Shown: positions 2,259 through 43,335 of the stretch, piece after piece
Layout: every line of letters starts with the position of its first letter
Numbering within the stretch: the first letter of the stretch is position 1
Source of the DNA: Thermoanaerobaculia bacterium
GTDB lineage: Bacteria > Acidobacteriota > Thermoanaerobaculia > Gp7-AA8
Reading direction: 5' to 3'
Length of the DNA: 64,000 nt
Assembly (NCBI GenBank): GCA_963715895.1
Contig: OY970284.1
Location: 2,441,484-2,505,483 of the forward strand
The notes under the pieces: generated by a model
The model's database searches: none
What the model was told of the DNA's origin: nothing
The model's input: only the letters and a program-made list of their open reading frames with translations
Position numbers and translations under genes: made by a program

Positions 2259-2921
2259 ATGCTTGAGCGTCGCCACACCTGGTCTCCGGTGATCGAACGG
2301 CGGGACCGCGCAACCACGAAACCGCGCAACCGCGTTCCCGAGCTCATCGCCATCGGCTGTTCCCTCGGCGGGATGAACGCGCTGCAGGCAATCCTCAGCC
2401 GTCTCACGCACGACTTCTGTATACCGATCGTGGTCGCACAACACCGGCACCGGAGGTCGAGCGACGCGCTGGCGGCGTACTTCCGCAGGCAGACGGACCT
2501 GGAAGTCGTCGACGCCGAGGACAAACAATGGATCGAGCCCGGGCACGTCTATCTGGCGCCGGCCGACTATCACCTGTTCGTCGAGCGCAATGGCGCGCGG
2601 GGAGAGCTGAGCCTTTCGGTCGACGACGCCGTGCGCCACTCCCGGCCGTCGATCGACGTCCTCTTCGAATCAGCCGCGGAGGCCTACGGCAACCGGCTGC
2701 TCGGCATCGTCCTCACCGGCGCCAATGACGACGGCGCGCGCGGGGCGGCCAGGATCAAAGCGCTCGGCGGCATCGTCATCGCGCAGGATCCCGCGACGGC
2801 GGAAGCCCCGGCGATGCCCTGCGCCACGATCGACGCCGTGCAAGTGGATCGAATCTTGCGTCTTGAAGAGATTGCCCCATTCCTGATCGAGGTCTGCCAA
2901 GCCTCCTTGAGCCATTCATGA
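2259..2921 (+). CDS. cheB: CheB-type protein-glutamate methylesterase, catalytic domain only (no receiver domain)
   Basis: GCSLGGMNAL (active-site Ser region), QHRHR, conserved Asp/His context typical of CheB_methylest. 220 aa, no REC domain. Stop overlaps the start of the downstream kinase (ATGA). Confidence 0.8.
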   Translation: MLERRHTWSPVIERRDRATTKPRNRVPELIAIGCSLGGMNALQAILSRLTHDFCIPIVVAQHRHRRSSDALAAYFRRQTDLEVVDAEDKQWIEPGHVYLAPADYHLFVERNGARGELSLSVDDAVRHSRPSIDVLFESAAEAYGNRLLGIVLTGANDDGARGAARIKALGGIVIAQDPATAEAPAMPCATIDAVQVDRILRLEEIAPFLIEVCQASLSHS

Positions 2922-4501
2922 CGCCCGCTCCCGACGAAAATGTGAACATCCTGCTGGTCGACGACCAGGAGAGCAATCTGCTCGCGCTGGAGTCGATCCT
3001 CGACGGCATGAATCTCAATCTTGTCCGGGCGGAATCGGGCCGTGCCGCCCTTCGGGCTCTTCTGGACCGCGAATTCGCGGTGATCCTGCTCGACGTGCAG
3101 ATGCCCAACCTCGACGGCTTCGAGACGGCAAGCCTCATCCGCGAGCGCGACAAATCGCGCGGAACTCCGATCATCTTTCTCACGGCCCTGAGCCGCAGCG
3201 AGACGCATGTCTTCCGCGGCTACGAGTTGGGGGCCGTCGACTACATCTTCAAGCCGTACCAGGCGGAGATCCTTCGCTACAAGGTCAACGTCTTCGTCGA
3301 GCTGTTCCGGAAGACGCAGGCCCTCACGCGGCAGGCGCACGAGCTGAAACGCCTCAGCCGTCAGAACGAATTGATCCTGAACGCGGCCGCGGAAGGAGTG
3401 TTCGGCGTCACCCCCGACGGCAGGGCCACGTTCGTCAACCCGGCAGCGGCCAGGATGATCGGCCACAGCGCCTCCGACGTGATCGGACACGAAGTCCACC
3501 CGCTGATTCATCCATCGTTCCCGGGCGTCTCGACGTGCGACGTCGCGCGCTGCCCGCTCGACGCCGCGCTGCACGGCAATCGGGTGCGCGACGAGATCGT
3601 CGACACGTTCTTCCGCGACGACGGGACCAGTTTTCCGGTCGAGTTCTGCGCCTCGCCGATGCTCGATGACGAGGGGAACACCGTCGGCTCCGTCATCACG
3701 TTCCGCGACGTGACGGAGAAGCGCGCCGCGGCTGCCGCGGCCGAAAACGAACGGCGCTACCGGGAGGCCGAGGCGCAGAACCGCGCCAAAGACAACTTCC
3801 TGGCCACGCTCTCGCACGAACTGCGCACCCCGATGACCTCGATCCTCGGCTGGGTGCAGTTTCTCCGCTCCGGCGACTACTCCCCCGACGAGCTTCGCGA
3901 GGCGCTGCACATGATCGAGAACAGCGCCCAGCTGCAGAAGCGGCTGATCGACGACATGCTCGACGTCTCACGCATCATCCTCGGCAAGTTCCAGGTCGAC
4001 CTGCGGCCGACGCATCTGTCGGAGATCGTCGAAGCGGCTGTCACGAACGCGCGACCCGACGCCGCCGAACGCGGCGTCCGCCTGACCTCGGAAGTCGTCC
4101 GTCCGCCCGAGGACGTCGTCGAAGCCGACGCCGGGCGAATCCAGCAGGTCATCGGCAACATTCTCTCGAACGCCATCAAGTTCACGCCGCCGGGCAAGCA
4201 GGTCGACCTGCGCCTGGAGCGCGTCGATCACATGCTGCAGATCAGCGTGCTCGACGAAGGGGAGGGCATCGAGCCGTCCTTCCTCCCGCACGTCTTCGAG
4301 CGGCTGCGCCAGGCCGACGCTTCCTCCAAGCGCAGCGGCCTCGGCCTCGGCCTAGCCATCGCACGCCACATCATCGACCTCCATCACGGCGATATCCGCG
4401 CCGAGTCGGAGGGCTTGGGCAAAGGGGCGCGGTTCACCGTGACCCTGCCGGTGATCGAGCATGCGCAGGCCATGAGGGAGTCCGCGACATCGATCGCGTA
4501 A
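2918..4501 (+). CDS. hybrid response-regulator / PAS / histidine kinase (REC-PAS-HisKA-HATPase_c)
   Basis: N-terminal receiver (LLVDDQESN...ILLDVQMPNLDGFE). PAS (LNAAAEGVFGVTPDGRATFVNPAAARMIG). H-box (FLATLSHELRTPMTSILGW). G-boxes (GLGLGLAIARHIIDLHHGDIRAES). Translationally coupled to cheB. Confidence 0.85.
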   Translation: MTPAPDENVNILLVDDQESNLLALESILDGMNLNLVRAESGRAALRALLDREFAVILLDVQMPNLDGFETASLIRERDKSRGTPIIFLTALSRSETHVFRGYELGAVDYIFKPYQAEILRYKVNVFVELFRKTQALTRQAHELKRLSRQNELILNAAAEGVFGVTPDGRATFVNPAAARMIGHSASDVIGHEVHPLIHPSFPGVSTCDVARCPLDAALHGNRVRDEIVDTFFRDDGTSFPVEFCASPMLDDEGNTVGSVITFRDVTEKRAAAAAAENERRYREAEAQNRAKDNFLATLSHELRTPMTSILGWVQFLRSGDYSPDELREALHMIENSAQLQKRLIDDMLDVSRIILGKFQVDLRPTHLSEIVEAAVTNARPDAAERGVRLTSEVVRPPEDVVEADAGRIQQVIGNILSNAIKFTPPGKQVDLRLERVDHMLQISVLDEGEGIEPSFLPHVFERLRQADASSKRSGLGLGLAIARHIIDLHHGDIRAESEGLGKGARFTVTLPVIEHAQAMRESATSIA

Positions 4502-5143: not shown

Positions 5144-5258
5144 GGATTCGCCTCGGTGCACGTATCGCACCGATCCAGCCATTAGTCTCTGAGCTTCGCG
5201 GCAGGCCAATGCTACTGCGTGGTAAGTGAGCCAATAGGGAGACCAATGTGGCACAGAC

Positions 5259-6613
5259 CACAGTTGTCCAAATTAGGTTAGGAGAATTTGGCCCTCGACG
5301 GAAACGCCGGGCTCTGTAGGATTAGGCAGTTCGACCAAGAACGACCGATCAACAGGAGGCCCAGCGTTGAGTGCATTTTCTAGCGTATTCGGACAGATTC
5401 TCAAGTTGTTTCCCCGGGCAGAGTTCGAGCAGTTGGTTCGAGAGGCCAAGGCCGAGAGGCACGCTCGAGGGTTCACCTGTTGGCAGCAGTTCGTGGCGAT
5501 GCTGTTTTGCCAGTTGGGCAAGGCCCAATCGCTTCGTGAGATATGCCAGGGACTGGCCTCGGTGGAAGGGAAGCTCAATCACCTCGGTATCGAGGAGGCG
5601 CCGAACAAGTCCACCCTTTCCTACGCAAACGCCCACCGGCCGTGGGAGTTGTACCAGCTCGTTTTCGAGCAGATGTATCAGCGCTGCCGTCAGATTGCAC
5701 CGAAGCATAAGCTGCGGTTCAAGAACCCGTTGCTGTCGATCGACGCAACCGTGATCGAGCTTTGCGCGAGCCTGTTTGACTGGGCTCACTACAAGCAGAC
5801 CAAGGGAGCGGTGAAGCTTCACATGATTCTCGATCACAACGGGCTGCTACCGAGCTTCTGCCTCATCACCGAAGCCCGAAAGTACGACGTGACAGTGGCT
5901 CGGGACTGGGATTTCCCAGCCGGTACGATCATCGCTTTCGATCGTGGATACATCGACTTCCGCTGGTTTCGCTCACTCGACCAACGCGGCATCTTCTTCG
6001 TCACGCGACTCAAACGACGGACGACCTATTCTGTGGTCAAAGAGAACCCCATTCCTCAGAAGGGCGGCGTTCTTCGCGATGCCACCATCCAGCTGACCAG
6101 CCGGCAACTCAGAGGCGGTTCCTCTCCACTTCTTCGCTTGGTCGAGTATCGCGCTCAGGACGGCCGGACCTATGAGTTTCTCACCAACCATCTGAGCTTC
6201 GGACCAACCACCATCGCTGCCATCTATGAACAGCGATGGCAGATCGAGTCGTTTTTTAAAGCCATCAAGCAGAACCTGCGCATCAAGACCTTCGTGGGGA
6301 CCTCCGCGAATGCTCTTCACATCCAGGTCTGGACGGCTCTGATCGCCATCCTCACGCTTCGGTACCTCAAGCTACGCTCCACGTTCGGATGGGCTCTGTC
6401 GAATCTGCTCGCCATCTTGCGGTTCAACCTGTTCGCTTACCGCGATCTGTGGTCCTGGCTCAACGACCCGTTCACTCCACCGCCTCTCCCTCCACCCGCT
6501 CAACTCTCCCTCAATTTGGACAGCATCTGAGGGGGTCGATCTCACTTCCCGTCAAAAATGACTCGTACGCTCAGCAGAACCGGCCGTTTCTCAACCTAAT
6601 TTGGACAGCTGTG
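5259..6613 (+). mobile_element. IS4-family insertion sequence, copy 1 (1355 bp)
   Basis: 22-bp imperfect terminal IRs cacagTtgtccaaattaggtt / cacagCtgtccaaattaggtt. Flanked by perfect 9-bp direct repeat ggcacagac (5250-5258 and 6614-6622). Identical to copy 2 over its full length. Confidence 0.85.
5367..6530 (+). CDS. IS4-family DDE transposase
   Basis: 387 aa; C-terminal YEQRWQIESFFKAIKQNL (YREK-type) motif and DDE_Tnp_1-like architecture. TTG start as given in the ORF track. Confidence 0.85.
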   Translation: MSAFSSVFGQILKLFPRAEFEQLVREAKAERHARGFTCWQQFVAMLFCQLGKAQSLREICQGLASVEGKLNHLGIEEAPNKSTLSYANAHRPWELYQLVFEQMYQRCRQIAPKHKLRFKNPLLSIDATVIELCASLFDWAHYKQTKGAVKLHMILDHNGLLPSFCLITEARKYDVTVARDWDFPAGTIIAFDRGYIDFRWFRSLDQRGIFFVTRLKRRTTYSVVKENPIPQKGGVLRDATIQLTSRQLRGGSSPLLRLVEYRAQDGRTYEFLTNHLSFGPTTIAAIYEQRWQIESFFKAIKQNLRIKTFVGTSANALHIQVWTALIAILTLRYLKLRSTFGWALSNLLAILRFNLFAYRDLWSWLNDPFTPPPLPPPAQLSLNLDSI

Positions 6614-6715
6614 GGCACAGACACTCTTGTCTGTGCCGGATCTCGCCACGACCCAAGACGCAAGCCCTCAGCGGCGGGCGGCTCCGGCCGGGGCACAGAC
6701 AAGAGTGTCTGTGCC
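6614..6715. repeat. 102-bp inter-IS spacer made of two inverted copies of the 24-bp hairpin ggcacagaca-ctct/agag-tgtctgtgcc flanking 54 bp
   Basis: 6614-6637 ggcacagacactcttgtctgtgcc; 6692-6715 ggcacagacaagagtgtctgtgcc. Outer halves continue as caatgtggcacagac (5244-5258) and gtctgtgccacattgg (8071-8086). Confidence 0.8.
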
Positions 6716-8070
6716 CACAGTTGTCCAAATTAGGTTAGGAGAATTTGGCCCTCGACGGAAACGCCGGGCTCTGTAGGATTAGGCAGTTCGACCAAGAACG
6801 ACCGATCAACAGGAGGCCCAGCGTTGAGTGCATTTTCTAGCGTATTCGGACAGATTCTCAAGTTGTTTCCCCGGGCAGAGTTCGAGCAGTTGGTTCGAGA
6901 GGCCAAGGCCGAGAGGCACGCTCGAGGGTTCACCTGTTGGCAGCAGTTCGTGGCGATGCTGTTTTGCCAGTTGGGCAAGGCCCAATCGCTTCGTGAGATA
7001 TGCCAGGGACTGGCCTCGGTGGAAGGGAAGCTCAATCACCTCGGTATCGAGGAGGCGCCGAACAAGTCCACCCTTTCCTACGCAAACGCCCACCGGCCGT
7101 GGGAGTTGTACCAGCTCGTTTTCGAGCAGATGTATCAGCGCTGCCGTCAGATTGCACCGAAGCATAAGCTGCGGTTCAAGAACCCGTTGCTGTCGATCGA
7201 CGCAACCGTGATCGAGCTTTGCGCGAGCCTGTTTGACTGGGCTCACTACAAGCAGACCAAGGGAGCGGTGAAGCTTCACATGATTCTCGATCACAACGGG
7301 CTGCTACCGAGCTTCTGCCTCATCACCGAAGCCCGAAAGTACGACGTGACAGTGGCTCGGGACTGGGATTTCCCAGCCGGTACGATCATCGCTTTCGATC
7401 GTGGATACATCGACTTCCGCTGGTTTCGCTCACTCGACCAACGCGGCATCTTCTTCGTCACGCGACTCAAACGACGGACGACCTATTCTGTGGTCAAAGA
7501 GAACCCCATTCCTCAGAAGGGCGGCGTTCTTCGCGATGCCACCATCCAGCTGACCAGCCGGCAACTCAGAGGCGGTTCCTCTCCACTTCTTCGCTTGGTC
7601 GAGTATCGCGCTCAGGACGGCCGGACCTATGAGTTTCTCACCAACCATCTGAGCTTCGGACCAACCACCATCGCTGCCATCTATGAACAGCGATGGCAGA
7701 TCGAGTCGTTTTTTAAAGCCATCAAGCAGAACCTGCGCATCAAGACCTTCGTGGGGACCTCCGCGAATGCTCTTCACATCCAGGTCTGGACGGCTCTGAT
7801 CGCCATCCTCACGCTTCGGTACCTCAAGCTACGCTCCACGTTCGGATGGGCTCTGTCGAATCTGCTCGCCATCTTGCGGTTCAACCTGTTCGCTTACCGC
7901 GATCTGTGGTCCTGGCTCAACGACCCGTTCACTCCACCGCCTCTCCCTCCACCCGCTCAACTCTCCCTCAATTTGGACAGCATCTGAGGGGGTCGATCTC
8001 ACTTCCCGTCAAAAATGACTCGTACGCTCAGCAGAACCGGCCGTTTCTCAACCTAATTTGGACAGCTGTG
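6716..8070 (+). mobile_element. IS4-family insertion sequence, copy 2 (1355 bp, 100% identical to copy 1)
   Basis: Same IRs as copy 1. Flanked by perfect 9-bp direct repeat gtctgtgcc (6707-6715 and 8071-8079), which is the reverse complement of the copy-1 TSD. Confidence 0.85.
6824..7987 (+). CDS. IS4-family DDE transposase (second identical copy)
   Basis: Protein identical to 5367..6530. Confidence 0.85.
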   Translation: MSAFSSVFGQILKLFPRAEFEQLVREAKAERHARGFTCWQQFVAMLFCQLGKAQSLREICQGLASVEGKLNHLGIEEAPNKSTLSYANAHRPWELYQLVFEQMYQRCRQIAPKHKLRFKNPLLSIDATVIELCASLFDWAHYKQTKGAVKLHMILDHNGLLPSFCLITEARKYDVTVARDWDFPAGTIIAFDRGYIDFRWFRSLDQRGIFFVTRLKRRTTYSVVKENPIPQKGGVLRDATIQLTSRQLRGGSSPLLRLVEYRAQDGRTYEFLTNHLSFGPTTIAAIYEQRWQIESFFKAIKQNLRIKTFVGTSANALHIQVWTALIAILTLRYLKLRSTFGWALSNLLAILRFNLFAYRDLWSWLNDPFTPPPLPPPAQLSLNLDSI

Positions 8071-8134
8071 GTCTGTGCCACATTGGTCCCTGGTTTCCGG
8101 CACCAACGGACAACGCGGCGCGAAGCGCCGCGCC

Positions 8135-9523: not shown

Positions 9524-9640
9524 GGCGCGGGATTCTAATGGACGTTGCATCCTGAGGCGGCGGCAGCCCCGGCAGAGCGCGCCGAAGGACCCCAACCTGA
9601 AACCCGGACGGGCGGCGGAATGTCGACTAACCCTCGACTA

Positions 9641-9952
9641 ACCCGCATTTCTCACAGCATTGCTTCGCTTCTTGTCACGCCCTTTCGTCGAGAGCCTTCT
9701 CCTCCCGCGGTTTTTTGCGGGAGGAGAAGGTGCCGACAGGCGGATGAGGAGGGCGTATACGCGTCAGAAACGATTCTCGCGTCGTTGGCCGAACGGCGCT
9801 TGAAAGCACGAATCGCGCGCGAATAACGCACGCGTGAATGCCCCCTCATCCGCCTGTCGGCACCTTCTCCCCCGCAAGAAACCGCGGGGGAGAAGGCCCT
9901 CGACGGTAACAGAGTGCCGACGATTTACGTGAGAGTGTGAGAAATGCGGGCT
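9641..9952. repeat. modular MITE-like element copy A (57-nt hairpin module in inverted pair around a variable core; outer IR cccgcatttctcaca / tgtgagaaatgcggg)
   Basis: Module ccttctccYcccgcggttttttgcgggRggagaaggtgccgacaggcggatgaggRgggcg. Its reverse complement (cccctcatccgcctgtcggcaccttctcccccgc...gcgggggagaagg) follows 90 bp later. Related copies are at 32054, 46737, 55003 and 62619. Confidence 0.65.
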
Positions 9953-10067
9953 AATCCGCCACCCAACCGGGATACAACTTGGGGGTCCTTCGACCGTCCT
10001 GCGCCGCGCAATCGCTTTCGCGATTACGCGGCTCCGGCGGCTCAGGATGACAGTGTTCGGATCGTGT

Positions 10068-18633: not shown

Positions 18634-18762
18634 GGCTTGGCTCCTTCCGGTACGAAAAGGATGCAAGCGGGTGGCCGGAAAGTGTGGATGGGCACGGTCG
18701 GGGATTGGCAAGCGGGTCAGTCACCTCACCGAGTTTGCCGCGAAAGCGCGGCTTCGCCGCCG

Positions 18763-18861
18763 GGCACAGACAAGAGTGTCTGTGCCACATTGCCCCTCGG
18801 TATTGCTGCAATGTGGAGTCTTCGCCGGATCTAATGTGGCACAGACACTCTTGTCTGTGCC
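18763..18861. repeat. inverted pair of the 24/30-nt hairpin element (ggcacagacaAGAGtgtctgtgccacattg ... aatgtggcacagacaCTCTtgtctgtgcc), nested inside an outer IR cgcggcttcgccgcc / ggcggcgaagccgc
   Basis: 18763-18786 and 18838-18861. Same element as at the IS locus and inside the PFOR gene. Confidence 0.8.
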
Positions 18862-18888
18862 GTGCGGCGAAGCCGCACGTTTGCCCGC

Positions 18889-22959: not shown

Positions 22960-23056
22960 TCGTCAACGCACTTCACCTTACGCGCTCTCCTCGGCGGCCT
23001 CTCGCCGGCTAGTGATGCCTGTGAAGCGACGCCCGGGGGCGTTCAGGTCATTCGCG

Positions 23057-23380
23057 CTTGGGATCACGCCACTCCCGAAGGCCTTCAAGATCACACGCGC
23101 GTGAGATTTGCGACTCGCGACGGTATTCAAGATCACACGCGCATGAGATTTGGGACTCGCGACGGTATTCAAGATCACACGTGCATGAGACTTGGGACCC
23201 GCGACGGCCTTCAAGATCACCCGCGCATGAGATTTGGGATCAGGGATCGCCTCGAGGTCATGCGTGTCTGATATTTGTCCCCATGCGATCTGGCCTCGAG
23301 GTCATGCGTGTTTGATATTTGCCCCCATGCGATGTGGACTGAGGTCTTACGCATCTGATATTGACCCCCGCGTGGTAGCC
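23057..23380. repeat. array of 42-44-bp tandem repeats: 4 direct units (ttcaagatcacACGCGCatgagatttgggactcgcgacggta) followed by 3 units in inverted orientation
   Basis: Units at 23083, 23126, 23168, 23210 (direct) and 23252, 23296, 23340 (about reverse complement). Not CRISPR-like: no unique spacers. Confidence 0.7.
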
Positions 23381-23475: not shown

Positions 23476-23705
23476 TGCGACGCCGCATTAGCGGCTCAAG
23501 AGGGTAGCCAGGGGTGCGAGCGTTTTTTGCGAGCACCCCTGGAACCCGATGCGATCTGAAATCGTGACGCGTCAGCGGCACCGGATGGAGTCCCCGGTTA
23601 CTCCAGTGCCGCTAACGCGGCACCAAACCATGCATCTCTTCACCAGGGGTGCTCGCAAAAAACGCTCGCACCCCTGGCTACCGTCTTGTTGCCGCTAACG
23701 CGGCG
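23476..23705. repeat. long inverted repeat (about 63-bp arms, about 100-nt spacer); each arm itself contains the hairpin ccaggggtg...cacccctgg with a T6/A6 loop
   Basis: Left cgccgcattagcggctcaagagggtagccaggggtgcgagcgttttttgcgagcacccctgg. Right is its reverse complement with 3-4 mismatches. Lies just 3' of the giant adhesin gene. Confidence 0.7.
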
Positions 23706-23747: not shown

Positions 23748-26700
23748 TCAACCTCTTGGCCGGATGGCGATGGCGGCGGCGATGGCGAGGGTGAGCGCCA
23801 GAAGCATCAATGCGTAGCCGCTCATCGCCGGCACCTCTTCGAGCAGGACGACCGGGGCGGTCGACGAGTTGTTGGCGGGCACCGGATCTGTTTCGTTGCC
23901 CGAGACGGTGGCGGTATTGGTCATCGTTCCGGCCACGTGGCCGGTTCCGTGGATGACGATGGTGGCGGTGGCGCCGTTGGGGATCGTGCCGAGGTTGCAG
24001 GTGACGGTTGTCGTCCCGCTGCAGGAGCCCTGCGTCGGGGTGGCGGTCGCCAGCGTGAAGTTGGCCGGGAGGGGATCGGTGACTACGACGCCGGTGGCAG
24101 TGCTGGGGCCGTGGTTGGTGACGACGAGCGTGTAGTCGAACTGCGACTGCTCGAGCAGCGGAGTCGGTGCCGTCTTGACGATTCCGAGGTCGGCCGATGG
24201 TGTGCCGGTCGTGCCGCCGTTGCCGGTGTTGTCGGTGTTGTTCGCCGGGTTTGGATCGGGCTCGGTCGCTGAGGCGGTGGCGCTGTTGTCGAATGCACCG
24301 GCGGCGGTGATCGTGGCTGTAACGGTGATGGTGACGTTGGCACCCGAGGCAAGGCTGGCGATGGTGCAGGGAAGGGCCGCGCAGCCGCCGCCGGTGACGT
24401 TGGTAATGGTCAGGTTCGTCGGCGTGTCGGTGACCTGGACGTTCGTGGCCGTGGACGGTCCGGCGTTGGCAACGACGATCGTGTAGCTGATGGTCTGGCC
24501 ACTGGTAAAGGGACCCGTCGTCGTCAGCGTCTTGACCAGGGAGACGTCGGCCGATGCCGCGGCGGTACCGCCGTTGCCAGTATTGTCGGTGTTGTTGCCG
24601 CTGTTGGGATCGGGCTCGGTGGCGGAGACGGTGGCGGTGTTGTCGAACGAGCCGGCTGCGTTGATCGTTGCGGTGACGTTGATGGTGACGTTGGCGCCCG
24701 AGGCGAGGCTGGCGATGGTGCAGGGCAGAGCGGCGCAGCCGCCGCCGCTGACGTTGGTGATGGTCATGTGCGTCGGGGTGTCGGTGACCTGGACGTTCGT
24801 GGCGGTGGACGGTCCGGCGTTGGCGACAACGATCGTGTAGCTGATGGTCTGGCCGACGGTGAAGGGACCGGCGGTCGTCAGCGTCTTCACCACGGAAACG
24901 TCGGCGGAGGCGCCGGTGACACCGCCGTTGCCGGTGTTGTCGGTGTTATTGCCCGGATTCGGATCAGGCTCCGTCGCCGACACCGTGGCGCTGTTGTCGA
25001 ACGCGCCGACGGTAGTGATCGTGGCGGTGACGTTGATGGTTACGTTGGCGCCCGAGGCCAGGCTGGCGATCGTGCAGGGGAGAGCGGCGCAGCCGCCACC
25101 GCTGACGGTGTTGATGGTCATGTTCGTCGGCGTATCGGTGACCTGTATGTTCGTGGCGGTGGACGGTCCGGCGTTGGCGACGACGATGGTGTAGCTGATG
25201 GTTTGGCCGGCGGTGAAGGGGCCGGAAGTCGTCAGCGTCTTGACGACGGAGACGTCGGCGGACAAGGTCGCCGTGCCGCCGTTGCCTGTGCTGTCGGTGT
25301 TGTTGTTCGTGTTCGGATCGAACTCCGTTGCCGAGACCGTCGATGTGTTGTCGAACGAGCCGGCGGCGGTGATCGTGGCCGTGACGTTGATGGTGACGTT
25401 CGCTCCGGAGGCCAGGCTGGCGATGGTGCACGGCAGCGCGGCACAACCGCCGCCGCTGACGTTGGTGATGGTCATGTTCGACGGTGTGTCGGTGACCTGA
25501 ACGTTGGTCGCGGTCGACGGACCGGCGTTGGCGACCACGATCGTGTAGCTGATCGACTGGCCTGCGTTGAAGGGGCCGGCGGTGGTCAGCGTCTTGACGA
25601 CCGAGACGTCGGCCGAGGCGACGGCGGTGCCGCCGTTGCCGGTGCTGTCGGTGTTGTTGGCGAGGTTCGGATCGGGCTCGGTCGCCGACACGGTAGAGCT
25701 GTTGTCGAAGGCACCGACGGCGGTGATCGTGGCGGTGACGTTGATCGTCGTATTGGCGCCCGAGGCCAGGCTGGCGATGGTGCAGGGGAGTGCGGCGCAA
25801 CCGCTGCCGCTGACGCTGGTGATGTTCAGGTTCGTTGGCGTGTCGGTGACCTGCACGTTGGTCGCCGTCGACGGTCCGGCGTTGGCCACGACGAGCGTGT
25901 AGCTGATCGACTGGCCGAGCGCGTATGGCCCGGAGGTCACCAGGGTCTTGACGACCGACACGTCGGCGGAGGCCAGGGCGGTGCCGCCGTTGCCGGTGTT
26001 GTCGGTGTTGTTGCCGATGTTCGGATCGGGCTCCGTCGCGGAGACGGTGGCGCTGTTGTTGAACGCCCCGGAGGCGTTGATCGTTGCCGTGACGGTGATG
26101 GTGACGTTGGCCCCCGAGGCCAGGCTGGCGATGGTGCAAGGGAGTGCCGCGCATCCGCCGCCGTTGACGTTTGTGATGGTCAGGTTCGTCGGTGTGTCGG
26201 TGACCTGCACGTTGGTGGCCGTCGACGGACCGGCGTTGGCCACGACGAGCGAGAAGGTGATCGACTCGGTTTCCGTGAACGGCCCGCTGGTGGTCAGCGT
26301 CTTGACCACGGAGACGTCGGCCGAGGCGGCGGCGGTGCCGCCGTTGCCGGTGCTGTCGGTATTGTTCGACGGATCGGGATCGGGCTCCGTGGCCGACACG
26401 GTAGCGGTGTTGTCGAACGAGCCGACGGCTGTGATGGTGGCGGTGACGTTGATGGTCGTGTTGGCGCCCGAGGCCAGGCTGGCGATGGTGCAAGGGAGTG
26501 CGGCGCAACCGCTGCCGCTGACGCTGGTGATGGAGAGGTTCGACGGTGTGTCGGTAACCTGCACGTTGGTGGCCGTCGAGGGGCCGGCATTGGCGACGAC
26601 GATCGTGTAGCTGATCGTTTCGCCGACGGTGAACGGTCCCGCGGTGTCGAGGGTCTTGTCGACCGATACGTCGGCCGAGGCGCCGGTGATGCCGCCGTTG

Positions 26701-29700
26701 CCCGTGTTGTCGGTGTTGTTGCCGGGATTCGGATCGGGCTGCGTTGCCGACACCGTGGCGCTGTTGTCGAAGGCGCCGGGGGAATTGATCGTGGCGGTGA
26801 CGGTGATGGTGGCGTTCCCACCCGCGGCCAGGCTGGCGATGGTGCAGGGGAGGGCCGCGCAGCCGCCGCCGGTAACGTTGGTGATGGTTTCGTTCGTCGG
26901 CGTGTCGGTGACCTGGACGTTGGTCGCGGTGGCCGGACCGGCGTTCGCTACGAAGATGGTGTAGGTGATCGACTGGCCGGAGGTGAAGGGGCCGCTGGTG
27001 GTCAGCGTCTTGACCACGGAGACGTCGGCCGCGGTGGCCAGGATGACCGTCGTGCTGTCGCTGTTCGAATTGACACCCTGCACGGTGGCAGTGGCGGTGT
27101 TCGTCACGGAAGCGTTGGCGATGTCGGTGCCGGTGATGATGTAGGCCGCCGTGCAGGTGATCGACTCGCCGGGATCGAGGAAGTTGTCGAGATCGCCGAC
27201 CGTCGAGACGGCCGGGCAGGTCACGGTGGCCTTGTTGTCGGCGACGGTGACCGGACCCTGGAGCGGTGCGGAGCCGCTGTTCGTCACCAGGTAGTTGTAG
27301 TGAATGGTATCGCCGGGGTTGAGGTAGGTCGTCTCGACGGAGGTCTTGTCGAGCGTCAGGCCGGTGGTGGCGTAGGTGGCGGAGGAGTTGGCGGAGTCGT
27401 GCGGCGTTCCGCTGAACGTTCCGGTGGCGTGGGCCGTGTTCGTGTGCGATCCGGGTGTGATCGCCACCGGGCCGGCCACGCAGGTGATGATGTGGTTGTC
27501 GTTGGCCGCCACGGCCACGGGAAGGGTGACCGAGGCGAATCCGGCGTTGCACCCCGAGACGTCGATGGTGTCGTCGGTGATGCTGATCGGGCTTAGCGGA
27601 ACGTCGCCGGTGTTCTCCACGGTGAAGCGGTAGAAGACCGGGCCGGAGCTGAGCGGGAGGAAGATCGACCAGGGGCCGCTGGCGCTCGCGCTGATCTGTT
27701 TGAGCAGTGAAATGGAAGGATGGGGCGTGCCGGCGTCGAGCGATCCGCTGGCGGTGTTCCCATTCACGGTGGCGGCGTTGATGATGTACGAGACGTTGCC
27801 GCTGGTGTTGTTATAGGTCCCGACCGCGGGGACGGTGACCTGAAGGCTGACGGTGCAGATGCCCCCGCCGGCGATCGTTCCGCCGGAGAACGAGATCGAG
27901 CCGGCGCCGGTGACCGGCGAGAAGCTGGGAGCGCCGCATCCGGACGTCGCCGGCGACGGCGACGGTCCCACCGTCATCGCTCCGGGAGATGTGGGGAAGG
28001 TGTCGGCGAAGGCGACGCCGCTGATGGCGTCGTTCTGATTGGGATTGGTGATGGTGAAGGTCAGGATCGACGTCCCGCCGGCCAGGATCGGCGTCGGATT
28101 GAATCCCTTGGCGATGACCGGCGGGACGAGCGCGGTCAGGGTTGCGCTGCCGACGCTGCTGATGTTCGTCCCGCTCTCGGTCGTCGAGAGGGTGCCGCTG
28201 ACGTTGCCGTGCGGTCCGGCGCTCGTAGCGGTGACGTGGACGCTGACGGTGCACGAGCCGCTGGCGGGGATGGTGCCGCCGCTGAACGTCAGCGACGTTG
28301 CCGCGGCTGCCGGTGCCCAAGTACCGCCGCAAGTCGTGCTGGCAGTCGGCGTAGCCGCGACCTGCACACCCGAGGGGAGCGAGTCGGTGAACGCGGCGCC
28401 GGTGAGCGCGGCCGTGTTCGTATTGGTGAGCGTGAACGTCAGCGTCGAGACTCCGCCGGCCGCCACCGGATTCGGCGAGAAGGCCTTGGCGATGGTCGGT
28501 TGAACCGCGGCCTTGCAGCCGGTGAAGGTGACGTTGTCGATGTTGCTGTCGGAGCCTGCGTTGGTGTTGCCGGAGTTGTACGGATAGATGCGGAAGAAGG
28601 TGAGACCCGACGAATTGAGGCCGCTGTTGACGGTGATCGGGCCGAAGGATTGCCAGGTGTTCGTCGACGTGATGGCGGTGGCGCTGTTGAAGATCGACGC
28701 CGCTGGCTCGCTCGTGCCGGCGCCCTTCGTCGTCGTGCCGAAGAAGACGGCCAGTCCCTTCGGGCCGTTCGGTGTCTTTTCCAGCGCGTCGAAGTTGAGC
28801 GTGACGCTCGATACGCCCGTCGTGTTGATGGCGAACTCGTAGTAGTCGTCGTTCGCCGTGACCAGCGTGGTGCCGGTGGTGATGGCCCCGTTCGATCCCC
28901 ACGACGAGGTGCCGTCAGCAGTCGTCGAGCTGTTCGTCGCCTGGATGGTCGGGTTCGACAGACCGGGGCCGGGCTCGGCCTGCGCGGTGCCGACGTTGTT
29001 CGTCGACGGTGCCGGCGAGGTGAGCGTGAAGCCGGTCGGGAACGTCCACTTGGCCAGCGTCAGACCGCAGAGCCCCGTTCCCGGAGGCGGCGCGGTGTTG
29101 ACCGTCAGCGTCGCCGTGGCGTTGTGGCCGGTGTCGGTGGTGTCGATGAAAAGGTGATTGGTGGTATTGACCAGCGATCCGGTCGCGCTCGGGGTGACGT
29201 TGACCTTGATCACGCAGTTGCTGTTGGCCGCGAGCGTGCCGTTGGAGAACGAGATCGAGCTCGATCCGGCGGTGGCGGTGAGCGTCGGCGCGCCGCATCC
29301 GCTGGTCGTCGCTCCAGCCGGATTGGCAACGAGGAGGTTCGCCGGAAGGTTGTCGACGAAGTTGTAGCCGCCCACCGTGCCGCCGTTCGGATTCGTGAGC
29401 GTGATCGTGAGCGCGGAGACGCCGTTCAGCGACGTGGGGTTGGGGCTGAAGCTCTTGGCGATCGTGGCCGAGGTCGGATCGATGACGTTCGCGATCCGGG
29501 CGCCGGTGGTGAAGTCGCCGTTGTAGTGGTAGCTGCTGCCGGAGAAGTCGTAGAGCAGCGTATTGAGGGGCTGGCTGGTGCCGCCGCCGCTCACGACCTT
29601 GATCGTGTACGTGGTGACGACGTTGTTGCCGCCGGCCTTGAAGTCGCCGCCGACACAGGAGCGGTAGTTGGGGCTGTTGGGATCGTTCTCCCAGAGGCAG

Positions 29701-30419
29701 GAATCGGCGTAGAGCTTGTCGCTCGCGGTGGGGAAGGGGCCCGGAACGAACGGTGAGTCATCGGCGGAGTAGGTCGTCGAAACGGAGAGGACCTGGAAGA
29801 TGGTGTTCGGGAAGTTGATGAAGGCCTCGAACTGGTTGTATCCCTGCGTGGCCGTTCCCCCGAGAAGCTGAATGACGTAGGTGTTGCCGACCACCATGTC
29901 CATCGACCCGCCGGCGGGGACGGAAACGAGGGTGGGGATGGTCGCCCCGAACTTGACGTCGGAGACGGAGTTGCGGTTCTGCGAGATGAGGTGCTCGACG
30001 TAGATCTCGCGCGGTGTCGACGTGGAGATCGTGCCCGAGAGGTCGGTGGCGGTGATGTGGTACCGGCGGGTGGTATCGAATGCCGCCGCGGTCTTGACGA
30101 TAGCCACCTCGAAGAATGCGTCTTTGCACTGGCCGGCAGGGATGGACGGAATGGTGATCGTGGTGAGCGAGCCGGCGCGCAGATCGACGAACGCGTTGGC
30201 CGTGTCCCAGACGTAATTGACGGCGACGTTCGTGGTGGCCACGCTGCTGCAGACGCGCGCGCCGACCGGGAAGTTGCCGGGGCCGGTGGCGGGTGAGTTG
30301 CTGTCGAGTCCGACGACGTTCCAGGATACCGGGGCGATGGTCAGCGTCACCGCGGCGTTCGCGGCAACCGGGGCCAGCAGTGTGAAGAGACACATAGCGA
30401 TCAAAGAGATACGGCGCAT
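23748..30419 (-). CDS. giant (2223 aa) secreted cell-surface protein with about 12 tandem DUF11 ('conserved repeat domain') repeats and an IPTL-CTERM-like C-terminal sorting signal
   Basis: Signal peptide MRRISLIAMCLFTLLAPVAANA. About 118-aa units (VSVVKTLTTSGPFT.GQ.ISYTIVVANAGPSTATNVQVTDTP...GGGCAALPCTIASLASGAN.TI.VTATI...) repeated with near-identical 354-bp DNA period between about 24100 and 26950. C-terminus VPAMSGYALMLLALTLAIAAAIAIRPRG. Confidence 0.85.
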   Translation of the reverse strand: MRRISLIAMCLFTLLAPVAANAAVTLTIAPVSWNVVGLDSNSPATGPGNFPVGARVCSSVATTNVAVNYVWDTANAFVDLRAGSLTTITIPSIPAGQCKDAFFEVAIVKTAAAFDTTRRYHITATDLSGTISTSTPREIYVEHLISQNRNSVSDVKFGATIPTLVSVPAGGSMDMVVGNTYVIQLLGGTATQGYNQFEAFINFPNTIFQVLSVSTTYSADDSPFVPGPFPTASDKLYADSCLWENDPNSPNYRSCVGGDFKAGGNNVVTTYTIKVVSGGGTSQPLNTLLYDFSGSSYHYNGDFTTGARIANVIDPTSATIAKSFSPNPTSLNGVSALTITLTNPNGGTVGGYNFVDNLPANLLVANPAGATTSGCGAPTLTATAGSSSISFSNGTLAANSNCVIKVNVTPSATGSLVNTTNHLFIDTTDTGHNATATLTVNTAPPPGTGLCGLTLAKWTFPTGFTLTSPAPSTNNVGTAQAEPGPGLSNPTIQATNSSTTADGTSSWGSNGAITTGTTLVTANDDYYEFAINTTGVSSVTLNFDALEKTPNGPKGLAVFFGTTTKGAGTSEPAASIFNSATAITSTNTWQSFGPITVNSGLNSSGLTFFRIYPYNSGNTNAGSDSNIDNVTFTGCKAAVQPTIAKAFSPNPVAAGGVSTLTFTLTNTNTAALTGAAFTDSLPSGVQVAATPTASTTCGGTWAPAAAATSLTFSGGTIPASGSCTVSVHVTATSAGPHGNVSGTLSTTESGTNISSVGSATLTALVPPVIAKGFNPTPILAGGTSILTFTITNPNQNDAISGVAFADTFPTSPGAMTVGPSPSPATSGCGAPSFSPVTGAGSISFSGGTIAGGGICTVSLQVTVPAVGTYNNTSGNVSYIINAATVNGNTASGSLDAGTPHPSISLLKQISASASGPWSIFLPLSSGPVFYRFTVENTGDVPLSPISITDDTIDVSGCNAGFASVTLPVAVAANDNHIITCVAGPVAITPGSHTNTAHATGTFSGTPHDSANSSATYATTGLTLDKTSVETTYLNPGDTIHYNYLVTNSGSAPLQGPVTVADNKATVTCPAVSTVGDLDNFLDPGESITCTAAYIITGTDIANASVTNTATATVQGVNSNSDSTTVILATAADVSVVKTLTTSGPFTSGQSITYTIFVANAGPATATNVQVTDTPTNETITNVTGGGCAALPCTIASLAAGGNATITVTATINSPGAFDNSATVSATQPDPNPGNNTDNTGNGGITGASADVSVDKTLDTAGPFTVGETISYTIVVANAGPSTATNVQVTDTPSNLSITSVSGSGCAALPCTIASLASGANTTINVTATITAVGSFDNTATVSATEPDPDPSNNTDSTGNGGTAAASADVSVVKTLTTSGPFTETESITFSLVVANAGPSTATNVQVTDTPTNLTITNVNGGGCAALPCTIASLASGANVTITVTATINASGAFNNSATVSATEPDPNIGNNTDNTGNGGTALASADVSVVKTLVTSGPYALGQSISYTLVVANAGPSTATNVQVTDTPTNLNITSVSGSGCAALPCTIASLASGANTTINVTATITAVGAFDNSSTVSATEPDPNLANNTDSTGNGGTAVASADVSVVKTLTTAGPFNAGQSISYTIVVANAGPSTATNVQVTDTPSNMTITNVSGGGCAALPCTIASLASGANVTINVTATITAAGSFDNTSTVSATEFDPNTNNNTDSTGNGGTATLSADVSVVKTLTTSGPFTAGQTISYTIVVANAGPSTATNIQVTDTPTNMTINTVSGGGCAALPCTIASLASGANVTINVTATITTVGAFDNSATVSATEPDPNPGNNTDNTGNGGVTGASADVSVVKTLTTAGPFTVGQTISYTIVVANAGPSTATNVQVTDTPTHMTITNVSGGGCAALPCTIASLASGANVTINVTATINAAGSFDNTATVSATEPDPNSGNNTDNTGNGGTAAASADVSLVKTLTTTGPFTSGQTISYTIVVANAGPSTATNVQVTDTPTNLTITNVTGGGCAALPCTIASLASGANVTITVTATITAAGAFDNSATASATEPDPNPANNTDNTGNGGTTGTPSADLGIVKTAPTPLLEQSQFDYTLVVTNHGPSTATGVVVTDPLPANFTLATATPTQGSCSGTTTVTCNLGTIPNGATATIVIHGTGHVAGTMTNTATVSGNETDPVPANNSSTAPVVLLEEVPAMSGYALMLLALTLAIAAAIAIRPRG

Positions 30420-30711
30420 AGATGGACCTCGCAAATGCCAATACCGGGTGCTGGAAGCTGGACAAATAGCCAGCGCACTCCCCCGGCTGGTTATGGGAAA
30501 ACGATTTTGGACCCGCGTCACTGTAACCGGTTCCAATCACAGTGCCGTCAATCCTGAATGATGAGACCGTGAAAATCGGTGCGGCCAGGGTTCTGCGTGG
30601 CAGAACGATCGAGCGAAGAGGTTGGCCGAGCCTTTGGCAACCAGCGAAGCCGGCCGTGCCGGCCCTACCCGCCCTTGATACCCTCCCTACCCCGTGGGGT
30701 GGCGTGCGGCA

Positions 30712-32053: not shown

Positions 32054-32370
32054 GCCCGGCACTTCTCACACTCTGACGTAAATCGCCGCCACCCTGTACC
32101 CCGTCGAGGGCCTTCTCCCCCGCGGTTTCTAGCGGGGGAGAAGGTGCCGACAGGCGGATGAGGGGGCGCTCGCGCGTGTGTTATTCGCGCGCGAGTCGTG
32201 CTTTCAAGCGGCGATTGCGCCAACGGCGCAAGATCGTTTCTGACGCGTATGCGCCCTCCTCATCCGCCTGTCGGCACCTTCTCCCCCCGCAAAAAACCGC
32301 GGGGGGAGAAGGCCCTCGACGGGGTAAAGAGTGCCGATGATTTACGTGAGAGTGTGAGAAATGCGGGCTC
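32054..32370. repeat. modular MITE-like element copy B
   Basis: Two inverted 57-nt hairpin modules (ccttctcccccgcggtttctagcgggggagaaggtgccgacaggcggatgagggggcg and its complement). Outer IR ttctcacactctgacgtaaatcg / cgatgatttacgtgagagtgtgagaa. Confidence 0.65.
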
Positions 32371-36194: not shown

Positions 36195-36575
36195 TTCTTC
36201 ACGAGCGGTCGTGTAGCCTCCAGAGCCTCATGGGTGTGGCTTGAAGCCTCTCAGGGTGGACTCTGAGCCTCCTCCATGACGCTTTAGGCCTACCCCATGA
36301 GGCGTCGAGCCTCCTCAGTAGATCCATGGATCTACCCAAGTGGGCTCTAAGCCTACCCCATGAGGCTGTAGGTCTCTTCAGTAGATCCATGGATCTACTC
36401 AAATAGGCTTTAAGCCTACCCCATGAGGCTTTAAGCTTTAAGCCTATTCGGTAGATCCATGGATCTACACCATGAGGCTTAAAGCCTACCCTATGAGGCT
36501 TGAAGCCTATTCAGTAGATCCTGGGATCTACTCGAGACGAAAAAAAGCCTATTCAGTAGATTCAGAATCTACTCG
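36195..36575. repeat. array of about 6 units (about 63 bp) each carrying an 18-bp palindrome GTAGATCCATGGATCTAC and a second IR AAGCCTaccccatgAGGCTT
   Basis: Perfect palindromes at 36318-36335, 36381-36398, 36451-36468; variants at 36514-36531 and 36555-36571. In the convergent por / 36562 gene intergenic, bordering the low-GC islet. Confidence 0.75.
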
Positions 36576-39968: not shown

Positions 39969-40510
39969 TCACGCGGAGGCGCGAAGCACTTATGGAGGGC
40001 GGTTGTGCGCGGAGGCGCGGACCACAATTCAGCCCCGCGCTCGGCGCAGCGCGAGCGCGGGGAATCGGTGGTGATGTGGAAGTGCGGCCGCGGAGGCGGC
40101 CGCTACAAGCTGTGCGGATCCGCTTCTGTTGCGAATTGGGCGGCGTTGTCCCGGCCGCCTCCGCGGCCGGCAAATGGGCGACCCCTCGTACCCCGCGCTC
40201 GCGCTACGCAGAGCGCGGGGCTGGATTGTGGAGCGCGCCTTCGCGCGAACCGGGAGCGCTGGCGCCAATCGCGTTTGGTTGTGGGCGATAGCCCGCGGAG
40301 TCAGGGGCGGCGCGGGCCGGGGGCGAGACCTCAGCGCTCCGCAAACCACCGCCCCGCCCGGCAAGATGCCAAACGTCTGCGGTAACCCGGCGGCGGGACG
40401 CACGCCGGGCCAGCCGGCGAGACGCCAGCGCTCCGGAAAACCCCCGCCGCCCGACCCGGTGAGACGCCACGGCTCTTTTTCTCCGCGTCTCCGCGTCTTC
40501 GCGTGAAACC
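39969..40510. repeat. 540-bp non-coding region: GCGGAGRC-family arm (39969-40023), GC-rich hairpins ccccgcgctcg...cgagcgcgggg (40033-40059, 40184-40211), about 100-nt direct repeat (ggcgagacNNcagcgctccgNaaaccNccgccNcgcccgg, at about 40322 and 40419), and matching right arm tttttctccgcgtctccgcgtcttcgcgtgaaacc (40476-40510)
   Basis: Seen directly in sequence; same arm family as 20109 and 31983. Confidence 0.55.
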
Positions 40511-43136: not shown

Positions 43137-43335
43137 GTTGTCGGTTATCGGGGCGGTTATCGGTTATCGGTTGTCGGTTGTCTGGGGCGCGGTAGGTAGA
43201 AGGGTGGGGAATCGGAGTTTCGGATCACACCAACGTCTGACCTCCGACAACCGACAACCGACAACCGACAACCGACAACCGACAACCGACAACCGACAAC
43301 CGATAACCGACAACCGACAACCGATAACCGATAAC
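43137..43335. repeat. large inverted repeat whose arms are tandem CGGTTRT / YAACCGA heptamers (about 5 on left, 12 consecutive on right) separated by about 63 bp
   Basis: Left gttgtcggttatcggggcggttatcggttatcggttgtcggttgtc. Right gacaaccga(caaccga)x6 taaccgacaaccgacaaccgataaccgataaccgacgac. Same heptamer as the cheR-cheB hairpin. Confidence 0.8.

Follow-up and report, generated by a model that had tools for sequence, protein, structure and literature searches.

Inverted pairs of a probable triplex-type BoxC relative in a Thermoanaerobaculia genome and their association with small DUF559 nuclease genes

Introduction

What are the five related non-coding elements that lie scattered through one 64,000-nucleotide stretch of a Thermoanaerobaculia bacterium genome (phylum Acidobacteriota; assembly GCA_963715895.1, contig OY970284.1, positions 2,441,484 to 2,505,483), and how did they come to be there? 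This whole stretch is referred to here as the window. A first-pass annotation, made from the letters of the window, had described the elements as units of 260–320 bp that resemble miniature inverted-repeat transposable elements (MITEs) and are built from a 57-nt hairpin module, and had wavered between a recently active non-autonomous element and a structured-RNA gene family. It did not mention a kinship with the motif known as BoxC, PIT or TM, relatives that carry a gene of the DUF559 family, or the identity of the module core across phyla. The module is very probably a relative of triplex-type BoxC, and the window copies are probably gene-less, non-autonomous relatives of cassettes in which a DUF559 nuclease gene lies between two inverted modules. 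More tentatively, DUF559 may be the enzyme that spreads elements of this type.

BoxC or PIT elements of Escherichia coli and other Proteobacteria are said to have been treated by Bachellier in the 1990s and by Hoyne and Maher in 2000. Known from E. coli since that decade and by now counted in hundreds of genomes, these triplex motifs are still an open matter as to their origin, spread and function. The published TM pattern, earlier named BoxC and PIT, is CCCTCNCCC-N3-6-GGGNGAGGG-N3-GGGNGAGGG; according to its description (Holder 2015, PMC4666352), it occurs 23 times in E. coli K-12 and 3610 times across 262 genomes of Proteobacteria, often as inverted pairs of two subtypes. The same source records triplex formation in vitro for the E. 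coli motif, links TM sites to local genome instability and finds them more rearranged than control sites, states that purine-motif triplexes cannot form in RNA, relates earlier experiments in which PIT elements lacked promoter and terminator activity, and says that mobility functions were never found near the motif. The motif has also been described as a G-quadruplex-hairpin-duplex switch (Kaplan 2016, PMC5100583).

The module and its mirror symmetry

The five elements are held together by a short shared sequence. The module of the first-pass annotation, taken as 58 nt, has four matches in the window at no more than three mismatches, compared with none expected from 100 shuffles, and the 21-nt core GGTGCCGACAGGCGGATGAGG occurs ten times with 0 mismatches, five times on each strand and as two inverted occurrences per element. 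Repeat detection additionally ties the copies together through inverted and direct arms of 53–121 nt at 80–96% identity.

Each module (~60 nt) is made up of a C-rich arm (CCTTCTCCCCCGC), a complementary G-rich arm (GCGGGGGAGAAGG), an enlarged second loop and a third block (GGATGAGGGGGCG). Loop 1 has 8 nt; loop 2 has 11 nt and holds a mini-hairpin, GCCGACAGGC. The third block, which forms the 3ʹ tail, repeats the G-rich stem arm in mirror order: GCGGGGGAGAAGG read backwards gives GGAAGAGGGGGCG, and the tail is GGATGAGGGGGCG. All ten window modules have stems of 13–14 bp, and in all ten the tail agrees with the mirror of the stem at 8/9 positions or better in every register, with a perfect match over 13–14 nt in five. 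The three stem variants of the window, with five Gs, six Gs or GGAGG, each come with a matching tail, as where arm GCGGGAGGAGAAGG goes with tail GGATGAGGAGGGCG. Stems also differ between copies in a compensatory manner (CCCGC/GCGGG, CCAGC/GCTGG and CCTCCCGC/GCGGGAGG).

The same features are found well outside the window. Among 127 modules from many taxa, which comprise 27 distinct stems and 48 distinct loops, 96 form a stem of at least 8 bp, versus 3 of 127 shuffled controls. At DUF559 loci, described below, arm and tail vary together: GGGAGAGGG is accompanied by GGGTGAGGG 23 times, GGGAGAAGG by GGATGAGGG 16 times and GGGGGAGGG by GGGTGGGGG four times, and a mirror match stands downstream of the arm in 166 of 268 sequence windows versus 38 of 268 in the upstream control. 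A mirror repeat cannot be derived from Watson-Crick palindromy or from gene conversion between copies; it is what a purine-motif third strand requires. As single-stranded DNA, the third block can, by prediction, fold back on the hairpin as such a strand. The covariation of arm and tail is comparative evidence for selection in living cells on this predicted three-stranded fold, or at least on mirror symmetry. Elsewhere the module family fits the published TM pattern and E. coli BoxC sequences, and the window module represents a variant, since the 11-nt mini-hairpin in its second loop does not match that pattern.

The mini-hairpin itself is exchangeable. Rhizobial partner modules carry other small hairpins in its place, for instance GGCCCGAAGGGTC. 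A link between the loop TGCCGRCA and the Caulobacter methylation site YGCCGGCR was considered and dropped, since as a mini-hairpin the loop is free to vary; two further ideas dropped on inspection were that CGGAUGAGG is hammerhead-like and that the ends resemble those of the Tn3 or IS5 type. In Sinorhizobium meliloti 1021 (pSymB 610420–611653, L113, position ~590–640), the tail version is GGTGCCGGCAGGCGG, which contains TGCCGGCA and so fits the YGCCGGCR site methylated by Caulobacter ScmA, the methylase whose loss makes a DUF559 protein genotoxic. Since the loop varies freely elsewhere, this fit is probably coincidental.

Distribution of the module

A scan of one genome per species for the exact 21-nt core returned at least 111 stretches. 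Among the matches listed, the core-bearing taxa are Thermoanaerobaculia metagenome-assembled genomes (MAGs), Legionella, relatives of Rhizobium, Mesorhizobium and Sinorhizobium, Aestuariivirga, Hellea, the Dokdonella/Frateuria/Rhodanobacter group and others, and in all of them the core is preceded by a CCTTCTCCC...GGGAGAAGG hairpin whose inner stem and loop vary. Acidobacteriota and Legionella are thereby added to the range of the motif family, and the 21-nt core is the same from phylum to phylum. With one loop change, the module is also present in 183 rhizobial plasmid or chromid records, including about ten places on S. meliloti 1021 pSymB; these rhizobial copies are gene-less doublets of ~140 nt without outer arms. 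In an unrelated MAG labelled Devosia nanyangense (L046, ~6386–7107), an exact-core module lies between nuoH and nuoJ, probably after nuoI. This alphaproteobacterial placement in the same spacer as one of the window copies may be a coincidence or may reflect a shared preference for operon-internal spacers.

A DUF559 nuclease gene between inverted modules

In its complete form, the family would consist of a DUF559 nuclease gene of ~115 amino acids with one copy of the module on each side, the two being inverted to each other. In SMAG_U12756, a Thermoanaerobaculia MAG, one locus (L009) reads module, intact DUF559 open reading frame (ORF), module and right outer arm; both modules hold the exact 21-nt core, and the right outer arm is identical at 46 of 51 positions to the alpha arm of the window elements. 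A second locus of the same MAG (L075) likewise has the gene between two modules. Legionella moravica has two inward-facing modules around a 118-amino-acid ORF, and Legionella bononiensis has one intact cassette together with several internally deleted or decayed copies at different loci, so that several states coexist in a single genome. Across the Legionella loci, L017, L048 and L110 are intact cassettes and L003, L077, L006 and L072 are internally deleted.

All five intact cassette ORFs (L009, L075, L017, L048 and L110) belong to DUF559 (PF04480), with Pfam E values from 3e-33 (L009) to 7.5e-43 and a weaker match to a related restriction-endonuclease-like family. The product is a Vsr-like PD-(D/E)XK protein whose closest solved structure is 3HRL, an uncharacterised endonuclease-like protein (E = 3e-19); DUF559 has been classed with Vsr and with a Vsr-like homing endonuclease (PMC3424549). 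When ORFs of at least 100 amino acids were clustered across 112 module-containing loci, DUF559 was the only module-adjacent protein family, the other clusters being artefactual ORFs translated from the repeat. In L009 (7590–7688) and L075, the DUF559 reading frame continues through the right-hand module, whereas in Legionella the tail adjoins the stop codon without a gap; where annotated DUF559 proteins end in a module-encoded peptide, that peptide is thus likely to be a neutral extension or an error of annotation.

The association extends beyond the loci found through the module. Metagenome contigs were scanned with an alignment of the five DUF559 proteins, each cut off ahead of the module; of 600 candidate stretches, 589 code for relatives, and the best 80 were kept (38–81% identity, GC content 31–70%). 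A module was defined strictly as a perfect 9-bp purine-rich stem plus a tail matching its mirror at 8/9 positions or better. By this definition, among the best 80 metagenomic loci, modules facing the DUF559 gene are present upstream in 41/74, downstream in 37/71 and on both sides in 23/65. Module density is 3.87 per kb within 250 nt of the gene and 0.13 per kb further out, a difference of about 30-fold, and looser definitions agree. The best flank-to-flank inverted repeat scores at least 40 in 37 of the 53 DUF559 loci with enough flank, and in the large majority of these the repeat starts at the C-rich arm or a few nucleotides before it, which means that most cassettes have no outer arms.

The DUF559 protein is under purifying selection: the dN/dS ratio is 0.30 and 0.16 in two pairs. 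The module is held more tightly than the protein, as the Legionella gene has a GC content of 34% and its module is identical to that of hosts with 63% GC, where the protein is only 42% identical.

Evidence from E. coli K-12 comes from a locus that is independent of the search seeds. Here the stop codon of ycjD, a DUF559 gene, lies in a decayed module, and an intact BoxC follows 170 nt further on. Between the two (NC_000913.3, 1351000–1351840, L195) lies a duplicated fragment of the ycjD 3ʹ end, the intact BoxC being TM_ECO no. 9, and upstream of the gene stands a perfect 16-bp hairpin, CACCTCATTCTGACAA...TTGTCAGAATGAGGTG. Among 5426 complete E. coli genomes, 3378 contain ycjD and the others hold the eefRABCD operon there, so a clean empty site for ycjD does not exist; in phylogroups A, B1 and C, ycjD is described as standing in place of the lost efflux operon (PMC12817139).

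The association of the motif with DUF559 appears unreported in the literature searched. No publication linking DUF559 or YcjD to these repeats was found in a search that covered subscription journals sparsely, Kaplan 2016 (PMC5100583) mentions neither ycjD nor an endonuclease, and the window core string was not found in the literature searched. Two published observations concern DUF559 itself: a DUF559 protein triggers the SOS response in Caulobacter lacking a cytosine methylase (PMC12907096), and DUF559-containing repeats are hotspots of intragenomic recombination in Legionella pneumophila (PMC12308824).

Outer ends, target-site duplication and turnover

Window copies 1 and 2 have an outer terminal inverted repeat, CCCGCATTTCTCACA.../...TGTGAGAAATGCGGG, of which copy 3 has a truncated or deleted version; copies 4 and 5 are without it and have another architecture. 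The outer arms (~55 nt) and the CGTCGAGAG foot are specific to the Thermoanaerobaculia clade. In the window and related MAGs, 33 homologous outer ends finish in TGTGAGAAATGCGGG, and the letters that follow are mostly CTA, TTA, GTA or CTG, with NTA after 20 of the 33. Eight elements have both ends. Their 4-bp flanks are identical in two (CTAA in copy 1 and TTAA in L059), match at 3/4 positions in three and at no more than 2/4 in three, including copy 2. Altogether 21 of 32 flank positions fit a direct 4-bp duplication, compared with 14 of 32 for an extension of the inverted repeat. These data support a transposon-like insertion of the arm-bearing form with a putative 4-bp NTAN duplication, as in miniature transposable elements.

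Heptamer tandem arrays (CTAGTCC, GCAACYY and CGACTAA) adjoin several element ends, one at window 9624–9641, and CCGACAA is repeated at window 43215–43354. Such arrays include CTAG or CTAA, and insertion may favour them.

In ~280 kb of sequence from related loci, all 33 outer ends are without an adjacent transposase. The window does contain two tandem IS4-like copies (5240–8080; period 1457 nt, 97% identical), whose transposase has DUF4372 and DDE_Tnp_1 domains (ORFs 5367–6530 and 6824–7987). Their ends are unrelated to those of the elements and sit in a different palindromic repeat, AATGTGGCACAGAC...GTCTGTGCCACATT, of which an intact copy lies at 18740–18884; they were accordingly ruled out as mobiliser.

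Turnover is evident at one site, the nuoH-nuoJ spacer. A Thermoanaerobaculia MAG contig that is 91–96% identical to the window (L022) retains copy 5 there with a 54-nt internal deletion. A metagenome contig that is 97% identical over the nuo genes (L001) is without copy 5 and has instead an unrelated 142-nt heptamer palindrome (2859–3000) between intact coding flanks. That palindrome is an inverted pair of GTTGCTG repeats facing CAGCAAC repeats, and the same contig has a NuoG-like gene ahead of nuoH. Contigs reached through an identical Rex or cNMP-binding protein are short and end at the repeat.

The five elements and their surroundings

The refined bounds of the elements (Table 1) place all five copies at or near the positions first proposed. 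The module and its reverse complement are indeed present in each, but the view of the module as a hairpin was incomplete, because a mirror tail belongs to it as well, and in copies 4 and 5 the two modules face outward. There are thus two architectures. In copies 1–3, where the tails point inward and are 115 nt apart, the order is outer arm, hairpin, tail and an 85-nt core, followed by these flanking parts again in inverted order; in copies 4 and 5, the centre is formed by the arms that adjoin the hairpins. The mosaic structure noted earlier is borne out by the core common to copies 1–3, which in copy 1 is the reverse complement of that in copy 2, by two kinds of outer arm (alpha and beta) that both finish in TGTGAGAAATGCGGG, and by copy 5, a hybrid whose left half is of the copy-4 type and whose right half resembles the left half of copy 1.

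Table 1. Positions of the five elements, their modules and related features in the window
Feature	Position	Strand	Description
Copy 1	9642–9950	no strand	outer inverted repeat, beta-type left arm, module, 85-nt core, module, alpha-type right arm; tails inward
Putative 4-bp target-site duplication, copy 1	9638–9641 and 9951–9954		CTAA; stands immediately outside the terminal inverted repeat on both sides
Module 1L	9695–9755	+	hairpin 9695–9730, stem variant GCGGGAGGAGAAGG; 11-nt loop 2 with mini-hairpin GCCGACAGGC
Module 1L mirror tail	9742–9755	+	GGATGAGGAGGGCG; mirrors stem variant 9/9 in every register
Module 1R	9838–9896	-	hairpin 9863–9896, mirror tail 9838–9851
Copy 2	32055–32368	no strand	most symmetrical element; alpha-type arms on both sides; tails inward; ends without duplication
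Module 2L	32111–32168	+	hairpin 32111–32144, tail 32156–32168; 0 mismatches to the first-pass module
Module 2R	32252–32312	-	hairpin 32277–32312 (six-G stem), tail 32252–32265 with one departure from the mirror
Copy 3	~46733–47027	no strand	truncated alpha-type left arm, tails inward, beta-type right arm
Copy 3 right end			small deletion in terminal repeat, followed by TAG
Module 3L	46784–46841	+	hairpin 46784–46817, tail 46829–46841
Module 3R	46925–46986	-	hairpin 46950–46986, tail 46925–46938
Copy 4	~55012–55279	no strand	tails outward; inner arms (CTCTCGATGTAAGGGAAGCGC...) are inverted repeats; outer segment GTGGATAC...GGCAAG
Module 4L	55041–55100	-	hairpin 55065–55100 (stem variant CCAGC/GCTGG), tail 55041–55053
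Module 4R	55205–55262	+	hairpin 55205–55238, tail 55250–55262
Copy 5	~62631–62940	no strand	fills the 358-nt nuoH-nuoJ spacer within the operon
Module 5L	62659–62718	-	hairpin 62683–62718, tail 62659–62671
Module 5R	62860–62920	+	hairpin 62860–62895 (six-G stem), tail 62907–62920 (GGATGAGGGGGGCG, also six Gs)

As previously proposed, the elements encode no protein: no ORF with a Pfam match lies inside any of the five copies, and the ORFs translated from the repeat are artefacts. The module accounts for very common spurious ORFs, with peptides such as GEKVPTGG, and for assembly breaks. Copy 1 lies between genes for a beta-lactamase-fold protein and an M3 peptidase, copy 2 between genes for a cNMP-binding protein and a pyruvate:ferredoxin oxidoreductase, and copy 4 between a ThiS-like gene and rex. 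Copy 3 has as neighbours DprA and a MacB/FtsX-type permease gene whose stop codon is 5 nt before the start of the copy; the supposed insertion into parE is not upheld, as no ParE domain was found in the ORFs beside copy 3. The location of copy 5 between nuoH and nuoJ was correctly recognised.

Predicted folds are strong. Copy 2 as single-stranded DNA is predicted to fold at -151 kcal/mol (z = -22.7), and the RNA of the nuoH-nuoJ spacer at -187 kcal/mol (z = -9.4), as a near-perfect stem of ~300 nt. On these models, the most likely role of the window copies at their present sites is no more than that of strong secondary structures, in DNA as well as in transcripts, for example within the nuo operon, and a hairpin of ~300 nt inside a complex I-type operon may affect its expression. 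The complex I-like cluster (55996–63974, minus strand) has nuoJ directly after nuoH with no nuoI between them, a DUF6335 gene (61238–61648) between nuoK and nuoL, and the Rex repressor gene downstream.

The host genome seems unusually rich in intergenic palindromes. Copy 1 sits within a larger imperfect palindrome (9548–9597 and 9979–10055; CATCCTGAG...GAAGGACCCCAA and its complement), and a motif from this palindrome, GTCATCCTGAGC...CGAAGG, is inserted between module hairpin and tail in L016 and L089, so that repeats are nested within repeats. Other repeat families lie at 23497–23688, 40007–40246, 36245–36533 and 23029–23238; among them are two palindromic doublets, with arms of 46 nt at 98% and 56 nt at 89% complementarity, 63-nt repeats containing GTAGATCCATGGATCTAC, and 42-nt tandem repeats. 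A 2262-amino-acid ORF on the minus strand (23748–30536) has nine DUF11 repeats with DUF7507/DUF7933 domains and contains eight 354-nt tandem repeats (24200–27030) at 81–88% identity.

Origin and spread of the elements

If the window copies are relatives of DUF559 cassettes, they would have been derived from gene-bearing forms through gene loss and recombination between modules, and recombination between many modules would also have given rise to the mosaics and to the outward-facing copies 4 and 5. DUF559 might recognise the module as duplex, hairpin or triplex and nick there, after which repair copied from another member could spread or homogenise the family in a manner resembling homing or REP/RAYT. 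In its broadest form, which we regard as plausible though short of an even chance, DUF559 genes and inverted triplex-forming modules would constitute a previously unrecognised cross-phylum class of selfish cassettes, a PD-(D/E)XK counterpart of REP/RAYT; enterobacterial BoxC/PIT, many rhizobial palindromes and the window elements would be its gene-less offspring, and the nuclease would start copying by break repair at the folded or duplex module. The DUF559 gene is a candidate for the partner gene that BoxC-type repeats were thought to lack. Because this small gene is enriched between inverted motif pairs, the old BoxC question can be tested with one protein and one oligonucleotide.

Several observations weigh against an origin from DUF559 cassettes. 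The 64-kb window contains no DUF559 gene, and tblastn with DUF559 gives module-derived matches only (50% identity over 45–56 amino acids, E ~1e-9), in which the signal is mostly the module-encoded peptide and ~20 further residues are only weakly similar; in the 85-nt cores, tblastn found no convincing coding remnant beyond the module-encoded part. A simple internal deletion of a cassette could not yield copies 4 and 5, whose tails point outward. In L009 the left arm can hardly be recognised; in the multiple alignment of full cassettes with short copies, left halves were misaligned, and pairwise arm alignments were used instead. Only 35% of DUF559 loci pass the strict two-sided test, and most metagenomic cassettes have neither duplication nor outer arms; another mobility system may therefore be the source of the outer ends. 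Duplications of 4 bp are characteristic of DDE transposases rather than of PD-(D/E)XK nucleases, and no nuclease of the latter kind is known to transpose by itself. Genomes of E. coli have 1 to 27 BoxC copies, with no simple relation between that number and ycjD: O157:H7 genomes are without ycjD, and other listed O157:H7 strains carry 12 BoxC copies. Finally, DUF559 genes could settle in pre-existing repeats rather than spread them.

An alternative view, for which the flanks of the arm-bearing form are the main argument, is that the elements are ordinary MITEs mobilised in trans by a DDE transposase (for instance an IS5-like one that targets the 4-bp YTAR), that the BoxC-like motifs are merely internal to them, and that DUF559 is a passenger or an unrelated neighbour. 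IS5-group elements duplicate YTAR, which suits the two perfect duplications, the three 3/4 matches and the prevalence of NTA after the outer ends, and the outer terminal inverted repeats are those of a MITE. The IS4-like pair indicates that DDE elements are active in the host genome, but its ends are the wrong ones, and none of the outer ends examined has a transposase beside it. Moreover, such transposition would not reach copies 4 and 5, which are without these termini, and it leaves unexplained both the identity of the module across phyla and the bracketing of DUF559 by modules without outer arms in many phyla. We consider it unlikely. The first-pass idea of a recently active non-autonomous element is accordingly retained in part: the elements are non-coding, mosaic and palindromic, termini are defined in copies 1–3, the duplication of copy 1 is perfect and the nuoH-nuoJ site has turned over, but copy 2 is without a duplication, the flanks fit one only in the proportion given above, and no cognate transposase was found at the related loci.

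It is less probable still that the elements are structures retained by the host and not currently mobile, with the hairpin or triplex kept for replication, recombination or transcript processing (such as fork pausing, or a stabilising or RNase III-type cleavage element in the nuoH-nuoJ spacer). Copy 5 is kept at the same operon-internal site in the ~95%-identical genome L022, at an identity above that of some adjacent coding sequence; the spacer RNA folds as a long stem, mirror covariation shows selection on structure, and PMC4666352 ties TM sites in E. coli to local instability. The 97%-identical L001, however, replaced the whole element by an unrelated palindrome with nuoH and nuoJ unchanged, the genes flanking the five copies are functionally unrelated, PIT elements had no promoter or terminator activity in the experiments cited above, and the copies are mosaic and truncated, as expected of decaying selfish DNA. 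A family of structured small-RNA genes, the other proposal of the first-pass annotation, is very improbable and is not supported. It would draw on the strong predicted folds and the compensatory changes in hairpin stems. Against it, neither the window nor ten module-bearing rhizobial loci have an Rfam match at gathering score; sub-threshold hits (E ≤ 10) are generic long hairpins, the best for copy 2 being Rhizobiales-2 with 23 bits versus a cut-off of 40 (E = 1.2). Furthermore, the elements show the same symmetry on either strand and have no fixed orientation towards the genes beside them, and the mirror of tail and arm is a feature of DNA triplexes, of the purine-motif kind that, as noted, is not formed by RNA. 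The cassette relationship remains the preferred explanation of the window elements.

Comparison with known systems

Bacterial MITEs (Correia/NEMIS, ERIC and those derived from IS5 or IS630) resemble the window elements in being non-coding, 260–320 bp long and bounded by terminal inverted repeats, with a 4-bp duplication (putative here) in some copies, intergenic or intercistronic locations, a long hairpin fold and mosaic subfamilies. They differ in that here a cognate transposase was not found at the related loci, the gene-bearing relative encodes only a DUF559 nuclease, and copies 4 and 5 have no terminal repeats.

Rhizobia have their own unexplained intergenic mosaic palindromes, the RIMEs, Sm-repeats and A/B/C palindromes (Osteras 1995, as cited in PMC2573895). 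The module is shared with S. meliloti and Rhizobium and is set beside these named families by description, not by sequence; the rhizobial module copies differ from the window elements in being short gene-less doublets without outer arms. Among nucleases, the closest comparison is with Vsr and the homing endonuclease I-Bth0305I (EDxHD), which belong to the same PD-(D/E)XK clade as DUF559 (PMC3424549). As with these enzymes, a small free-standing nuclease gene is found, here within repeats, and the repeated context would suit a homing-like spread. The cassettes differ in having no intron or intein, and the DUF559 branch is known here from sequence alone.

A closer parallel is offered by REP sequences and their RAYT transposases, reportedly also treated by Nunvar (2010) and Ton-Hoang (2012). 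In both systems, short GC-rich hairpins with a conserved asymmetric flank form inverted doublets that fold into long hairpins, and one small gene is bracketed by inverted repeat copies, the majority of copies having no gene. What differs is the gene itself: a PD-(D/E)XK Vsr-like nuclease (PF04480) rather than the HUH Y1 transposase (PF01797) of REP/REPIN sequences with RAYT (Bertels and Rainey 2011, PMC3116915). RAYT was not among the protein clusters adjacent to modules at the 112 loci, where Pfam was applied to the five DUF559 members and no domain search for RAYT was made. The foot of the module hairpin has no GTAG or CGTC tag; it is preceded by CGTCGAGRG in the Thermoanaerobaculia clade only and by unrelated sequence elsewhere, and GTAG is absent. 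Moreover, the module has a mirror-repeat third block and is shared across phyla, whereas REPs are lineage-specific, and the DUF559 gene is multi-copy and often decayed, as in L. bononiensis.

The nearest relatives are BoxC, PIT and TM elements. Shared with them are a C-rich arm, a complementary G-rich arm and a further G-rich block that is its mirror repeat (G·G:C, A·A:T and T·A:T triads); an intergenic location in either orientation, often as close inverted pairs of two subtypes; an association with local rearrangement; and a sequence that is strongly conserved across species and has no known function. The window module differs in detail, with arm CCTTCTCCC/GGGAGAAGG and tail GGATGAGGG instead of CCCTCNCCC/GGGNGAGGG/GGGNGAGGG, a triad run of 13–14 nt instead of 9, a loop 1 of 8 nt, and a loop 2 formed by the 11-nt mini-hairpin instead of 3 nt. 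It also differs in its acidobacterial host, with the exact core present in Legionella, Rhizobiales and Xanthomonadales-type genomes as well, and in being packaged with outer arms, terminal repeats and a putative duplication. Lastly, the published work (PMC4666352) says that a mobility gene was never met near the motif, whereas a DUF559 gene lies near motifs of the window type.

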